Origin: Rhodothermales bacterium
GTDB taxonomy: Bacteria > Bacteroidota > Rhodothermia > Rhodothermales > JANQRZ01
DNA: 64,000 nucleotides
Assembly: GCA_039944855.1 (NCBI GenBank)
Contig: JBDUXZ010000005.1
Span: forward strand, 372,676 to 436,675
Reading direction: 5' to 3'
Below are positions 38,996 through 43,042 of the stretch, one piece after another. The stretch's first letter is position 1; each line of letters opens with the position of its first letter. A model generated the notes under the pieces. It searched no databases. It was not told the DNA's origin and was given only the letters and a program-made list of their open reading frames with translations. The position numbers and the translations under genes were made by a program.

Positions 38996-39870
38996 GAGAC
39001 TGTTTGGGGAACGGCTCAGTGGAAGCCTATGGGCGCCCGTCGGCGTCTGGAAGAGCCCTGATTCGCTCACCAGACGCCCGGACCCATGCGCTCGCAACGC
39101 TACGGCTCCGACCTGACGGACGCCCAGTGGGAAGTTATCGCTCCGCTGCTCGCAGGTCATCGCTCCATCAAGCACCCCCCTCGCCGCATCCTCGACGCCC
39201 TGCTCTACCTCGCCAAGACCGGCTGCCAGTGGCGCTACCTCCCCGGCGCCTACCCGCCTTGGCAGAGCGTCTACTACGTCTTCCGACGGTGGATGGCACG
39301 GGGGCTCCTGAGGGCGCTCGTCCACCGGCTCCGCCGCCTCGTGCGCATCCGCCTCGGTCGCGCACCAAGCCCGTCGGCGGCCATCATCGACTCGCAGTCG
39401 GTCAAGACGAGCCACGTCGGCGGCGAGCGTGGCTTCGACGGGGGCAAGCTCGTCACCGGCCGGAAGCGCCATATTCTGGTCGATACGCTCGGGCTGCTGC
39501 TGGCCGTGCTGGTTCACCGGGCCGACCTCAACGACAGCCAGCGCGCGCCGCAGTTGCTCGACCGAGTGCAGGGGGAGGTCCCTCGGCTGGAAGTCGTCTT
39601 CGCCGACGCGGGCTACCGCTACACGCCTGCGGGCTTGATCTGGCGCGTGTTCGGGTGGCTGTGGCAGGTGGTCGAGCGGGAGCCGGGGCAGCGGGGGTTC
39701 GTCGTGCTGAAGAAGCGGTGGGTCGTCGAGCGAACGTTCGCGTGGTTCGGCGGGTACCGCCGGCTCTCGAAGGACTACGAGCGGCTACCCGCCGTCAGCG
39801 AAGCGTTGGTCCAACTCAGTGCGATTCGGTTGATGGTTCGACGCATCGCCTAGCTTCCCCAAACAGTCTC
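38996..39870 (+). mobile_element. IS5-family insertion sequence (IS427/IS1031-like), apparently intact
   Basis: Perfect 16-bp terminal inverted repeats: GAGACTGTTTGGGGAA (38996-39011) and its complement at 39855-39870. Flanked by a direct TCA (38993-38995 and 39871-39873). A single transposase ORF lies inside. Confidence 0.9.
39086..39853 (+). CDS. IS5-family DDE transposase
   Basis: LTDAQWEVIAPLL...GCQWRYLP...IIDSQSVKT...GKLVTGRKRHILVDT...ADAGY...VERTFAWF..YRRLSKDYE are classical IS5/IS4-type motifs. Confidence 0.92.
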   Translation: MRSQRYGSDLTDAQWEVIAPLLAGHRSIKHPPRRILDALLYLAKTGCQWRYLPGAYPPWQSVYYVFRRWMARGLLRALVHRLRRLVRIRLGRAPSPSAAIIDSQSVKTSHVGGERGFDGGKLVTGRKRHILVDTLGLLLAVLVHRADLNDSQRAPQLLDRVQGEVPRLEVVFADAGYRYTPAGLIWRVFGWLWQVVEREPGQRGFVVLKKRWVVERTFAWFGGYRRLSKDYERLPAVSEALVQLSAIRLMVRRIA

Positions 39871-39920
39871 TCAGAACTCGTAGGGCATGGGTAGCCTCAG
39901 CCCCCACAGTTCCCTCCTTC

Positions 39921-40718
39921 CTATCCTATCGGCTTTCCAAAAATATGAATCGTACGATCGACCGGCTCCCTGTCCCAGGGTAGCACTTCATCTTCCCCAG
40001 GGAATTGCCTCCACCATTCGTACGACTCCCACCCTACCAACTCGAGGATCTCCTCTGCGCTAGTCCCATACCTACTCAGAGAAGAGGTGTGTATTTCTAG
40101 AGAGATCTTCGGCTTTGTCGCTAATACCTGCTGCGCTCCTTTGAGTAGGGTTGCTTCGAACCCCTCCACGTCGATCTTCAGTAGCGTAGGCTTAAGATGG
40201 AGGTAATCGTCCAGACGCACCACCGGTACGTCAATCCCTGGCCCTTTCGGGCTGACCTGCGCATTCGACTCGTCCGTAATACGTACCTGTCCCGGCTCCT
40301 GGCCTACAGCCGCTGGCACTATCTGCACGTTTTCGAAACCGTTCAGTTCTACTTGACGCTCCAAGATCTCCACGTTGCGCGGGACGGGCTCGAACGCGAC
40401 CACCTTCCCCTCTTGCCCTACGCGATGGGCGAATAAGACAGTGAGTTCACCATGGTGTGCGCCACATTCGAAGATGACATCTCCAGGCTCGACCATATGC
40501 TCCCACAGGAAAGCGATCTCCCCCGTGTCCCCCCCCCATTCAAACCACATCTCTCCAACACGATCACCCAAAAAGAACTTAAAGCGATGACCGAATCGCT
40601 CGAACTCAGTCACATAGGGGCTAAAATTTCGATTCCGAATTCGGAACAGGCTACGTTTCATGAACGCCCGAACGCTCTGGGGGGCTAATGCAGCAATATT
40701 CTTTACCAACGAAGCCAT
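39921..40718 (-). CDS. FkbM-family SAM-dependent methyltransferase
   Basis: VIFECGAHHGELTVLFA...VVAFEPVPRN...ELNGFENV. Lower-GC patch (spot counts 48-60%). Confidence 0.75.
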   Translation of the reverse strand: MASLVKNIAALAPQSVRAFMKRSLFRIRNRNFSPYVTEFERFGHRFKFFLGDRVGEMWFEWGGDTGEIAFLWEHMVEPGDVIFECGAHHGELTVLFAHRVGQEGKVVAFEPVPRNVEILERQVELNGFENVQIVPAAVGQEPGQVRITDESNAQVSPKGPGIDVPVVRLDDYLHLKPTLLKIDVEGFEATLLKGAQQVLATKPKISLEIHTSSLSRYGTSAEEILELVGWESYEWWRQFPGEDEVLPWDREPVDRTIHIFGKPIG

Positions 40719-40923
40719 AGTTATTTAGCTATTGATACACGCATCAATCACGCAACAAAGCGTATCGGACTGGTAGTTCGCGGCCTCAGGAGCAACGAAC
40801 CCTACGCTGTAACCCGCCCTCAATCGCGTGTAGCGCTCAGAAGCTGTTTGGGAATCACCATCGGGGACTGCAAGCGGTGCGAACTGGTCCGTCAGTGTTG
40901 CACCCGAGGTCGAAACAGCCTCC

Positions 40924-41958
40924 TTACATGTCTTCCCAGAACTCATCAGGCATGTCTTGGGCGAGCGCGAGGGCACCCTCAGCCCCGGCGAAGAGCGGGT
41001 CGTCGACGACGCGGACGCGGCAGGGGCCGTACTCCTTGAGCGCGTCTTCGATGGCCTCGGCGATGCCCTTGATTTGGCTCCCGCCGCCGGCGACGTAGAT
41101 GTTCTTTTTGACTAGCTCTTGGAAGTCCGGGTCGTATCGCGCGATGAGGTCGATGGCCGTCTCGGTGATGGCCGGGACGATGCTCTCGCACGCCTCCTTC
41201 AACTCCTTCGCTACGTCGATGTCCGTCATCTTGCCGCCGACGGACGCCTTCATCGGGAGCTTGCCGTTGGCGGTGCCGACGTAGCCGTGCTGCTCTTTGA
41301 AGTGCCGCACGGCGGTCTCGGAGAACCGCGCCTCGGGGTGGCGCTCTTCGAGGAGCCCCTTGAGGTGGCGGTCGACGTAGTCGCCGGCGAGCGTCAGCGT
41401 GCGCTGGTCCTCCTCGGTCGGCATCGTGCCGTGCATCACGCAGAAGTCGACGGTGCCGGCGCCGATGTCGATCACCATCGCGTTCGTGAGCGCGTCGAGC
41501 CCGTAGGCGACGGAGAACGGCTCGGAGACGACCATGAGGGCGTCGGCGTACTCGCGCACGGCGTCGCGGATGGCGAGCTTGTTCACCTTGAGCGCCTCGG
41601 CGGGGACGCCGACGGCGGCCTGGATGCGCTGGCCCTCCTCGGGCTTCACCTCCTCGATGAGGTGGTGGATCAGCTCGCGCACGGCCTCCTCGTCGCGGGC
41701 TGTGCCGTCACGGATGACGCCATTTTCGAGCGGGCGCACGAGCGTGACCGACATCCGGTTTTCGAGGGCCTTCTCGCCGAAGAGGATGTCCTCGCCGAGC
41801 ATCTTCTTGGCCACGAAGTCCTTCGGCCACGCGACGTAGCTCTCGACCCACGTCCGCTTCCCGTTGGAGGCGACGATCGCGCTCCGCGACGTGCCGAGGT
41901 CGATGCCGATGTGGAGGATGTCGGCCTTGCTGGAAGCCTTAGTTTTCTTCTGAGCCAT
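40924..41958 (-). CDS. Actin-fold ATPase, MamK-like rather than MreB-like
   Basis: Phosphate-1 HIGIDLGTSRS, VSEPFSVAYGLD, phosphate-2 VIDIGAGTVDFC, adenosine motif VAGGGSQIKGI. 344 aa. Confidence 0.75.
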   Translation of the reverse strand: MAQKKTKASSKADILHIGIDLGTSRSAIVASNGKRTWVESYVAWPKDFVAKKMLGEDILFGEKALENRMSVTLVRPLENGVIRDGTARDEEAVRELIHHLIEEVKPEEGQRIQAAVGVPAEALKVNKLAIRDAVREYADALMVVSEPFSVAYGLDALTNAMVIDIGAGTVDFCVMHGTMPTEEDQRTLTLAGDYVDRHLKGLLEERHPEARFSETAVRHFKEQHGYVGTANGKLPMKASVGGKMTDIDVAKELKEACESIVPAITETAIDLIARYDPDFQELVKKNIYVAGGGSQIKGIAEAIEDALKEYGPCRVRVVDDPLFAGAEGALALAQDMPDEFWEDM

Positions 41959-43042
41959 GGGGGGTAACGGTCGGGGTAGGGGTGAGCTGGCGTTGCTGAA
42001 GGTACGCGATAATGCCCTCTTCGAGGGATTGGGCGAGGGCCTCGCGGTGCGCGGCGGTGCCGAGGCGCGCCTCCTCGTCGGGGTTGCTGATCGCCGCCAT
42101 CTCGGCGAGGATCGCGGGCGCCTCCACGCCGAGGAGGACGACGAACGGCCCGGCTTTGACGCCCCAGTCGCTCGCCGCGGCGTTCGTCTCGCCCACGCTC
42201 CGCACGAGGCTGTGCTGGACCGCGCCGGCCAGCTCCTTCGACTCCTGGAATTTAACCGTATTCCCGGCACGCTGCAGCATCATGTTAAACTCGGCCACGG
42301 AGTAGTCGGCGGCGGCGTTCTCACCGTGCGCGAGCTGGAGCGTCGCGTCGTCGGTTTGAAGCCCAAAGTAGTACGTTTCGAGCGGGGCGACGCGCTTGTC
42401 GGGAATCCAGTTGACGTGGAGCGAGACGAAGAGGTCAGCCTCGTGCTCGTTCGCGTAGGCGACGCGGTCGCCGAGCGCGACGGCCTCGTCGGCCTCACGC
42501 GTCAGGAGGATGCGATAGCCCTCGCGCCGCCGGAGCCGGTCGCGGAGGCGGAGGGCCACGTCGAGCGTGATGTCTTTCTCACGCATGCCCGTCGCGCCGA
42601 GCGTGCCGGGGTCGCGCCCGCCGTGGCCGGGGTCGATGACGATGGTGTTGACCTGGAGGTTGAAGATGTCGGCGAGGGCGAGGTCCTCGGGGTGCTCCAC
42701 GGAGAAGCGCGCGTTCGTCGCGGGGTCCATCGCCGGCCCCATCACGGGGCCGTACTGCCCCATCCTCCTCTCCGCTGCCTGGCCGCTGTCGGGTGCCGCG
42801 CCGGCCTGCAGCCCCTGCACGATGACACCCACGAGCACCACGCCGAGTACGGCGAGGCCGACGATGGCCGAGGCGTACCGCCGCGAAACGGTCGGCGGCG
42901 GCGGCGCCTCTAGCGCTTGTGGGCGCCTGATCGGGCGCGATCGGGGTTTGGTCACCGGGTCCGCCACACGCAGGTTGTCCTCGTAGACAGCTTGGAGGAT
43001 GTCGCGCTTGTTGGACGGTCTGGGCGGTGGCACGGCGGCCAT
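41939..43042 (-). CDS. N-acetylmuramoyl-L-alanine amidase (Amidase_3, AmiC-like), membrane-anchored
   Basis: VIDPGHGGRDPG, DLFVSLHVNW. One N-terminal TM helix. Its last 20 nt overlap the MamK-like start. Confidence 0.85.
   Translation of the reverse strand: MAAVPPPRPSNKRDILQAVYEDNLRVADPVTKPRSRPIRRPQALEAPPPPTVSRRYASAIVGLAVLGVVLVGVIVQGLQAGAAPDSGQAAERRMGQYGPVMGPAMDPATNARFSVEHPEDLALADIFNLQVNTIVIDPGHGGRDPGTLGATGMREKDITLDVALRLRDRLRRREGYRILLTREADEAVALGDRVAYANEHEADLFVSLHVNWIPDKRVAPLETYYFGLQTDDATLQLAHGENAAADYSVAEFNMMLQRAGNTVKFQESKELAGAVQHSLVRSVGETNAAASDWGVKAGPFVVLLGVEAPAILAEMAAISNPDEEARLGTAAHREALAQSLEEGIIAYLQQRQLTPTPTVTPHGSEEN

Follow-up and report, generated by a model that had tools for sequence, protein, structure and literature searches.

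A MamK-family actin gene paired with the gene of a predicted membrane-anchored cell-wall amidase in Rhodothermales and other non-magnetic bacteria

Background

The genome of a Rhodothermales bacterium contains a pair of overlapping genes that encode a cell-wall amidase with a predicted membrane anchor and an actin-like ATPase of the MamK family. Non-magnetic bacteria from several phyla carry the same pair, with a strictly conserved motif at that end of the amidase which is predicted to lie in the cytoplasm. We propose that a cytoplasmic filament holds this amidase tail and positions or gates the cleavage of peptidoglycan, a proposal to which we give about an even chance of being right and in which the binding step is the one that we infer.

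The known tasks of bacterial actins concern wall synthesis (MreB), division (FtsA), plasmids (ParM) and magnetosomes (MamK), and we know of no bacterial actin that is dedicated to a peptidoglycan amidase. What is known of the placement of periplasmic amidases concerns mainly AMIN domains and LytM activators. A search of the published literature on MamK, on non-magnetotactic MamK-like actins, on BeeR and on links between actins and amidases yielded no description of the pair.

Results and discussion

A probable amidase-actin operon

Both genes are encoded on the minus strand of the window, i.e. the whole stretch of 64,000 nucleotides that was analysed (Table 1). The two open reading frames, an amidase and an actin of 344 aa, were recovered at the coordinates given in a preliminary description of this DNA, and so was the 20-nt overlap that it had placed between the actin ATG (41958) and the amidase stop (41939). 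This overlap is read in different frames by the two genes, and overlaps of 20-23 nt between amidase and actin genes are recurrent in Rhodothermales, Gammaproteobacteria and Desulfobacterales. Neither promoter-like nor terminator-like sites were found on the minus strand between the two genes. The sequence thus supports the view that amidase and actin form one operon, with an overlap that favours co-transcription and translational coupling; the two genes had earlier been called co-translated, for which the overlap is real, but co-translation is the wrong term for what it backs. No Shine-Dalgarno element is visible in the sequence ahead of the actin ATG, which is uninformative because weak Shine-Dalgarno use is usual in the Bacteroidota and their relatives.

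Table 1. Features of the amidase-actin pair (positions within the window)
Feature	Position	Strand	Basis
Amidase gene (P0002, 367 aa, Amidase_3)	43042..41939	minus	ORF and translation
N-terminal helix of the amidase (residues 12-27, KRDILQAVYEDNLRVA), predicted cytoplasmic	42962..43009	minus	AF2 helix
Motif ILQAVYEDN within the N-terminal helix	42974..43000	minus	conservation; coordinates verified
Transmembrane helix of the amidase (residues 54-79)	42806..42883	minus	AF2 helix, pLDDT ~91
Amidase_3 catalytic domain, predicted periplasmic, with regulatory insertion (residues 133-353)	41984..42646	minus	pLDDT >95
Overlap of amidase stop codon and actin start codon, ATGGCTCAGAAGAAAACTAA	41958..41939, 20 nt	minus	sequence
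Actin-like gene (P0001, 344 aa, MamK-family ATPase)	41958..40924	minus	ORF and translation

Conservation of the pair

In the GTDB species representatives, 73 loci could be tested, and in 71 of these, from several phyla, the gene immediately upstream of the actin encodes the amidase; one of the two exceptions is an IS insertion. The arrangement is also seen in each of the 19 loci from relatives whose flanking sequence is long enough, which brings the total to some 90 loci in Rhodothermales, Gammaproteobacteria and Desulfobacterales. Of the 63 pairs that were scored, 61 have their two genes no more than 60 nt apart, and 35 overlap. The pairing is far beyond chance. Its conservation had been named in the preliminary description as a point to check, and its lack as a reason to dismiss the idea of a functional link; the pair turned out to be kept across an order of the Rhodothermota as well as in the Gammaproteobacteria and Desulfobacterales.

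Within the order the pair is present in 23 of 41 genomes, and it is absent from the other sampled members of the phylum. It is therefore accessory, and its job should be dispensable or conditional in most lineages. The carriers include a cultured species, Roseithermus sacchariphilus (strain MEBiC09517, locus L035), a genus that to our knowledge has not been described as magnetotactic. When all open reading frames within 6 kb were clustered for 75 loci, no third universal partner gene was found; the neighbours are lineage-specific: one subclade of the Rhodothermales has thyA and folA there, for instance, and the Gammaproteobacteria have a divergent coiled-coil protein.

The genome carries other proteins of both kinds. 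On contig C31, apart from the amidase-actin pair, lies a canonical mreB (442 bits) with mreC downstream of it, which answers the question whether such genes exist elsewhere, and there is a separate secreted Amidase_3 protein. In this genome the module hence consists of an extra actin and an extra amidase and is not the housekeeping set. The situation is different in one genus (g29; four genomes, of which three are closed), whose only Amidase_3 protein is the tailed one next to the MamK-type actin and therefore presumably does the job of the cell-separation amidase.

A predicted bitopic amidase of the division type

The amidase is predicted to consist of a cytoplasmic tail, one transmembrane helix, a disordered linker and a catalytic domain of the AmiA/B/C type (AF2 model, mean pLDDT 81.8). 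That it is a membrane-anchored Amidase_3 protein had been proposed before and agrees with both the Pfam match (PF01520, residues 134-345, 1.6e-43, 149 bits) and the hydrophobic helix modelled at high confidence at residues 54-79. This helix is preceded by the basic residues SRR and is therefore predicted to have an N-in orientation, so that the model shows P0002 as a type-II membrane protein. In relatives a hydrophobic segment is found at the matching place, with a median distance of 17 residues between tail motif and helix. Some of the linked amidases have an RR pair before the hydrophobic helix that is reminiscent of Tat signals; it is not conserved in the Gammaproteobacteria.

The best PDB matches, by sequence as well as by fold, are E. 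coli AmiA (8c2o), AmiC (4bin) and Bartonella AmiB (3ne8), and the Foldseek TM-score with AmiA is 0.85 when normalised by target length. The Amidase_3 domain comprises 212 residues, as compared to the 174 positions of the profile; the alignments of AmiA and AmiC pass through the regulatory insertion, including the LAxxEN stretch, in a region where helices 232-242 and 249-259 are modelled, and with short amidases such as CwlV the alignment does not extend beyond the first half of the catalytic domain. The zinc ligands and catalytic glutamate (H140, E155, H209 and E314) are invariant in 65 linked amidases. By sequence and model, P0002 looks active and of the regulated division-type (AmiA/B/C) class, and it is probably autoinhibited via the regulatory insertion, yet it fails the equivalog cut-offs of the individual members of that class (AmiA, 111 bits with cut-off 400; AmiC, 98 with 700; AmiB, 72 with 532).

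AmiA, AmiC and AmiB are autoinhibited division amidases that are activated by EnvC and NlpD; AmiA/B/C are soluble proteins of the periplasm that leave the cytoplasm via Tat or Sec and find their place through AMIN domains or activators. P0002 resembles them (8c2o, 4bin, 3ne8, 8c0j) in its catalytic domain, its regulatory insertion and its invariant metal-binding and catalytic residues, but differs by its predicted cytoplasmic motif and transmembrane anchor, and no AMIN domain was matched in the profile search. A functional analogy can be drawn with wall hydrolases whose location or activity is governed from within the cytoplasm or through a partner in the membrane, namely MreBH-LytE and Mbl/FtsEX-CwlO in Bacillus subtilis and LytH-ActH in Staphylococcus aureus. 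LytH is a membrane-anchored Amidase_3 protein as well, and PDB entry 7tj4, which we take to represent LytH-ActH, is among the fold matches of P0002. These systems nevertheless use MreB paralogues or no actin at all and do not form an overlapping hydrolase-actin pair, and we know of no conserved cytoplasmic tail motif in LytE, CwlO or LytH.

The amidase might also serve mainly as an anchor of the filament to membrane and wall, while the filament positions some other, unlinked cargo, in the way MamK acts on magnetosomes via adaptors. MamK-family filaments are indeed known as tracks for the positioning of organelles (PMC10653835, PMC11929497), and the additional neighbours found in some lineages, such as the coiled-coil protein of the Gammaproteobacteria, would speak for this reading. 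Yet the invariance of the zinc-binding and catalytic residues over 65 sequences implies selection for enzyme activity, universal linkage is not seen for any other gene, and the linked amidase is the only one of its kind in genus g29, which together make a mere anchor distinctly unlikely.

A conserved tail predicted to lie in the cytoplasm

The cytoplasmic end of the amidase appears from its sequence to be a short amphipathic helix with a conservation as strict as that of the active site. Over 65 linked amidases from several phyla, the residues of the tail (consensus [IV]L[RQ][GA]VYEDN) are as conserved as the catalytic residues, N23 being invariant and L16 and Y20 being conserved at 90% or more. 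The motif is present in all 72 linked amidases that were inspected, and a strict six-frame scan of the 4.6-Mb genome returned a single match, P0002 itself, and no other protein. It is likewise absent from the housekeeping amidase of the same genome. A role of the motif in membrane insertion is an alternative to protein binding. The suggestion that a filament positions or regulates the amidase, which had been made before this motif was noticed, gains support from it.

A rather unlikely explanation of the same data is that the two proteins are co-expressed for one task, such as a conditional division or separation, without touching each other, and that the tail binds FtsA, FtsZ, MreB, a divisome component or lipid instead. 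The observations proper amount to an operon linkage and a conserved tail, both of which this would accommodate, and tails of division proteins such as FtsN are known to bind FtsA. It would leave aside, however, that the motif is limited to amidases that adjoin this actin and missing from the housekeeping enzyme, and that the frame overlap is kept across phyla, as is typical of subunits that are needed in fixed proportion.

A MamK-family ATPase with a filament-like fold

By its sequence, P0001 is a MamK-family actin-fold ATPase in which the nucleotide-binding and catalytic residues appear intact. With the NCBIfam subfamily model for MamK (NF040964) it scores 409.9 bits, residues 15-343 covering profile positions 1-329 of 335, and thereby passes the cut-off of 400 bits by a small margin; its scores with the MreB models stayed below their cut-offs (PRK13927, 84 bits with cut-off 293; TIGR00904, 67.7 bits with cut-off 365.75). 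Residues 13-343 align without a gap to residues 10-340 of the MamK of strain AMB-1 (5ljw; 277 bits, 40% identity over 331 residues), and all 71 clade members retain E146 and D164, the equivalents of MamK E143 and D161. The MamK structures 5ljw and 5ljv are the closest solved relatives by sequence and by fold. The preliminary description had favoured a MamK-type over an MreB-type protein on account of four motifs (GIDLGTSRS, VSEPFSVAYGLD, VIDIGAGTVDFC and VAGGGSQIKGI), all of which are present in P0001, and this preference is borne out by the scores and structures; the possibility raised there that the protein might cluster with MreB and be the only MreB of the genome does not apply, P0001 falling outside MreB and a separate mreB being present. 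The AF2 model (mean pLDDT 90.7) has the MamK filament 5ljv as its top Foldseek match (TM 0.91/0.97, rmsd 1.3 A), i.e. as modelled it matches the subunit of MamK in its filament state.

The mutation A278D abolishes the polymerisation of MamK, and P0001 carries a glutamate at the column of A278. As a mark of a non-polymerising clade this residue was rejected, since magnetosome MamKs, too, have glutamate there more often than any other residue (42 of 121).

ATPases of the actin-fold and Hsp70 types have a common fold, and P0001 indeed gave weak matches to Hsp70 and EutJ, so that the protein might be a non-filamentous, ATP-dependent regulator or chaperone (Hsp70/FtsA-like) that grips the N-terminus of the amidase and controls its membrane insertion, its export or its activation through the membrane; the RR pair seen in some of the tails would fit in here, given that Tat signals can have dedicated chaperones. 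We consider this unlikely, as the model fits a filament-state subunit best, the protein with which P0001 aligns without gaps is proven to form filaments, polymerisation is also known from BeeR as the next relative, and the RR pair is not a conserved feature in the Gammaproteobacteria.

BeeR is a three-stranded tubular actin of the Verrucomicrobiota (PDB 8r2n; PMC11929497), with a disordered N-terminal extension of 30-50 residues as its hallmark (PMC11929497). Like P0001 it is a MamK-related actin of non-magnetotactic bacteria, and it is the second-best solved relative (150 bits; Foldseek rank 4). P0001 is nevertheless only 34% identical to BeeR, reaches 222 bits with the BeeR equivalog model (cut-off 530) and lacks the extension, the model having some 14 residues ahead of the first strand. 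Unlike P0001, BeeR has no reported link to an amidase (PMC11929497).

A sister clade of the magnetosome MamKs

In the phylogeny the amidase-linked actins, P0001 among them, are monophyletic (support 99/99) and sister to the magnetosome MamKs (89/92). A sample of that sister clade that included its deepest branch consisted of members of mamI-E-J-K-M-O-P clusters without an amidase (three out of three). At eleven positions each clade has a fixed residue of its own (e.g. W44/Y, E121/R and R131/L); R218 is clade-specific as well. The earlier placement as a MamK/Alp-type protein thus holds at the level of the family and is refined to a sister clade, P0001 not being located inside the magnetosome MamK clade. 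Compared with MamK of Magnetospirillum magneticum AMB-1 (5ljv, 5ljw, 5jyg), with which it shares the family, 40% identity, the fold and the ATPase residues, P0001 differs in clade, in the clade-specific positions and in gene context, which is an amidase instead of mamI-E-J-K-L-M.

The absence of magnetosome genes, first remarked upon for the window, extends to the whole genome for the magnetosome-specific genes: tblastn with MamI, J, L, P, H, N and MmsF (queries from two clusters) returned none. That P0001 is a true MamK, left over from or forming a silent part of a magnetosome gene cluster, has a close to negligible chance of being correct. It could appeal to the NCBIfam subfamily cut-off having been passed and to the name 'MamK family actin-like protein' that relatives bear in public records, but is contradicted by these missing genes, by the position of P0001 in the tree and by carriers such as the cultured Roseithermus.

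A possible trans-envelope module

In the reading that we prefer, the operon would give rise to a trans-envelope module. The actin would polymerise in the cytoplasm, perhaps into the ATP-dependent, two-stranded filaments that mark the MamK family, as its retained catalytic residues and filament-like modelled subunit suggest indirectly, and the filament would bind the tail helix of the amidase, by analogy with ParM, which binds the C-terminal peptide of ParR, MreB, which binds the cytoplasmic domain of RodZ, and FtsA, which binds the tail of the division protein FtsN. Binding may then concentrate the amidase or place it at defined sites, where stem peptides would be stripped from the glycan strands, most likely for the separation of daughter cells or for local remodelling of the wall. 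Because the catalytic domain retains the autoinhibitory insertion, a periplasmic activator of the LytM type is probably still needed; the filament would set where the amidase acts and the activator when.

Conclusions

The pair points to an undescribed way of steering the cutting of the cell wall from inside the cell. If the proposal is true, an amidase with a cytoplasmic handle, and a filament dedicated to reading this handle, would represent a new principle in the spatial control of wall hydrolysis. This can be put to the test directly, with two small genes, a motif of nine residues and at least one cultured carrier (Roseithermus sacchariphilus). A wider view, which we hold only tentatively and consider possible rather than probable, is that within the MamK family the amidase-linked actins are a functional branch that is widespread, has its own job and is maybe the older one; here the filament would grip the tail of a bitopic, autoinhibited amidase, pattern the cleavage of peptidoglycan and, as the sole Amidase_3 system in at least one genus, drive the separation of daughter cells, and the use of MamK in magnetosomes would have been derived from a cytoskeleton for wall remodelling. 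With the proposed module the MamK family would also gain a function outside magnetotaxis, which would bear on the origin of the magnetosome cytoskeleton.

Organization of the gene pair

The preliminary description had reported that the gene of a 344-aa actin-fold protein (P0001) overlaps that of an amidase (P0002), and the two reading frames, listed in the table, were indeed found to share 20 nt (ATGGCTCAGAAGAAAACTAA), the Amidase_3 domain being matched in the upstream product and all four actin motifs listed earlier being present in the translation of P0001. The genes had been called co-translated; the overlap stands, while the correct wording is co-transcribed and translationally coupled. 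No promoter-like or terminator-like site was found between them on the minus strand. Directly downstream of the actin gene the GC content falls to 54-57% (39086-40900 of the window), versus about 68-70% around it. This stretch looks like a recent insertion, since at the syntenic locus (L026) of a congener neither of its two genes, for a methyltransferase and a transposase, was found. Another copy of the transposase (72% identical) is present on contig C20.

Features of the gene pair, its surroundings and its relatives (L, loci; G, genomes; C, contigs)
Feature	Location	Strand	Remarks
Amidase gene (P0002)	43042..41939	minus	ATG-initiated ORF, 367 aa; Pfam Amidase_3 at residues 134-345, 1.6e-43
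Actin gene (P0001)	41958..40924	minus	ATG-initiated ORF, 344 aa
FkbM-family methyltransferase gene	39921-40718	minus	in low-GC stretch downstream of actin
IS4/IS5-family DDE transposase gene	39086-39853	plus	adjoins methyltransferase gene
Helix holding tail motif	P0002 residues 12-27		AF2; disordered stretch after
Transmembrane helix	P0002 residues 54-79		AF2; predicted topology
Disordered linker	P0002 residues 85-114		AF2
Catalytic domain	P0002 residues 133-353		AF2, pLDDT above 95
Sole-Amidase_3 pair loci	G034:C32:67943-69658; G328:C1:2091163-2092878; G351:C1:333499-335214; G355:C1:3188151-3189855		four genomes of one genus
thyA-amidase-actin-folA loci	L046, L051, L058, L069, L072-L085, L093-L095
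Gammaproteobacterial coiled-coil gene	L062-L064, L067-L068, L071, L074-L075, L077, L080, L088, L090, L099-L100	opposite	upstream of amidase
Gammaproteobacterial coiled-coil gene	L086	opposite	downstream of actin

Family and phylogeny of the actin

P0001 had been judged MamK-like rather than MreB, and this is borne out: it scores 409.9 bits on the NCBIfam MamK subfamily model (cut-off 400), against 222 bits on that of BeeR, the three-stranded tubular actin of Verrucomicrobiota (cut-off 530), and 84 bits on that of MreB (cut-off 293). Among solved structures, M. magneticum MamK matches it best in sequence (277 bits; residues 13-343 align with MamK 10-340 without a gap), followed by BeeR (150 bits) and MreB (59 bits), and its identity is 40% to MamK, 34% to BeeR and 25% to the MreB of its own genome. 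The AF2 model (mean pLDDT 90.7) superposes on the filament-state MamK subunit 5ljv with TM 0.91/0.97 and an rmsd of 1.3 A, BeeR and MreB structures fitting more poorly. All 71 members of the amidase-linked clade retain the counterparts of E143 and D161, ATPase residues of MamK. That the protein acts as a non-filamentous ATPase regulator or chaperone we consider rather improbable.

Placement by phylogeny had been proposed alongside that by HMM. In a FastTree of 194 rows the amidase-linked actins group together as a single clade (71 rows, support 99), whose sister is the set retrieved with MamK of M. magneticum AMB-1 (121 rows, support 97), with BeeR outside both; in a 70-row IQ-TREE (LG+C20+F+G4) the support is 99/99 for the amidase-linked actins and 89/92 for the sister set. 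Three members sampled from the sister clade, its deepest branch (a Mariprofundus MAG) among them, each lie in a mamI-mamE-mamJ-like-mamK-mamM-mamO-mamP cluster without an amidase. Because the amidase-linked clade is a sister group and these sampled relatives belong to mam clusters, P0001 is a MamK-family member but no magnetosome MamK. As the sampling favours the top matches of two queries, intermediate clades may exist.

The lack of magnetosome genes noted for the window extends to the whole genome, in which tblastn with proteins drawn from two real clusters found no match for MamH, I, J, L, N, P or MmsF and only generic HtrA-type and CDF-type homologues appeared; that the actin is a magnetosome remnant is very hard to credit. 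P0001 is a second actin of a non-magnetotactic genome (4.6 Mb), whose canonical MreB (442 bits) is encoded on contig C31. Of the mreBCD to be sought elsewhere, mreB followed by mreC was recovered; the usual mreD-pbp2-rodA order did not appear within the 7 kb searched downstream of mreB. At this locus (about 229800-231900) the gene after mreC encodes a PBP4-type D-Ala-D-Ala carboxypeptidase (Peptidase_S13), and purN and purH lie upstream of mreB.

Conservation of the pair

Within the order (relatives labelled Rhodothermales) a MamK-family gene occurs in 23 of 41 genomes, and wherever the flanking sequence is long enough an amidase gene lies directly upstream. Among GTDB species representatives a scan recovered 75 loci, which belong to Rhodothermales, several Gammaproteobacteria (Thiogranum among them), Nitrosomonadales and Desulfobacterales; in 71 of the 73 testable ones the amidase gene immediately precedes the actin gene. 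The pairing, whose conservation had been left to be checked, is kept in several phyla. Among 401 sampled genomes of the phylum the actin is restricted to the order (13 genomes). Of 63 scored pairs, 61 have a spacing of no more than 60 nt and 35 overlap, with 23-nt and 20-nt overlaps found repeatedly in different phyla. The exceptions are L051 (gap of 284 nt) and L058 (6220-7910), the only locus with the two genes far apart (1.7 kb), where fragments of an IS1595-type transposase lie between them and the amidase keeps its tail motif (FLRGVYEDN).

No universal third gene was found among the neighbours. In one Rhodothermales subclade (about 26 loci) the order is thyA-amidase-actin-folA, an arrangement absent in the window's own lineage; a glycosyltransferase gene on the opposite strand and then an outer-membrane-protein-like gene come next. 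In Gammaproteobacteria a conserved, divergent coiled-coil protein (~285 aa; sole Pfam matches weak, of Tropomyosin type) adjoins the pair, and no counterpart was found near the window's pair.

The linked amidase

The catalytic domain aligns through the regulatory insertion of E. coli AmiA and AmiC and Bartonella AmiB, short amidases aligning to its first half only, and Foldseek ranks AmiA, AmiC and AmiB first; the linked amidase is therefore of the division type, and it is probably autoinhibited. Among the invariant residues of 65 aligned linked amidases are H140, E155, H209 and E314, which we take to be the zinc ligands and catalytic Glu of the family. It seems improbable, more so than the regulator or chaperone reading of the actin, that the amidase only anchors a filament whose cargo is something else. 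In the AF2 model (mean pLDDT 81.8) the AMIN domain and soluble periplasmic form appear replaced by a predicted cytoplasmic handle and a membrane anchor. The N-terminal tail motif, [IV]L[RQ][GA]VYEDN, is present in 72/72 linked amidases (in the alignment its N23 is invariant, its L16 and Y20 at least 90% conserved), and a six-frame scan of the genome finds a single occurrence.

Proposed mechanism and role

We give an even chance to a mechanism in which the actin would polymerise and bind the tail helix of the amidase, which would thereby be placed or clustered, while catalysis would still be gated by a periplasmic LytM-type activator. Co-function of the two proteins without contact is unlikely, although the least so of the alternatives. 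Two weak leads concern the putative contact. Amphipathic helices dock on other actins, and the tail's hydrophobic stripe I15/L16/V19/Y20/L24 resembles these by analogy. Eleven positions are fixed differently between the two actin clades (e.g. W44, E121, R131) and R218 is fixed in the amidase-linked clade only; from sequence comparison, such clade-specific residues could mark the tail-binding surface.

Full-text literature searches returned no description of an amidase-linked MamK-type actin, and neither the BeeR paper nor a 2023 survey of MamK orthologues in mBio mentions the link. We rate the finding as a predicted cytoskeleton of the MamK family that is linked to cell-wall hydrolysis.

Amidase_3 is encoded in each of the 41 genomes of the order, the best-scoring copy in nearly all of them being of a housekeeping type (about 165-186 bits). 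In the window's genome this housekeeping copy bears a signal peptide but lacks the tail motif. The MamK-linked amidase comes in addition, at about 140-166 bits. One genus of the order, g29, departs from this pattern: in 4/4 genomes, of which three are closed, the linked, tailed amidase (which keeps the motif as VLQ[SD]VYEEN) is the only Amidase_3. In this genus the module presumably does all the work of Amidase_3, which speaks for a function in cell separation, and the genus may represent a natural case in which the module replaced the housekeeping amidase.
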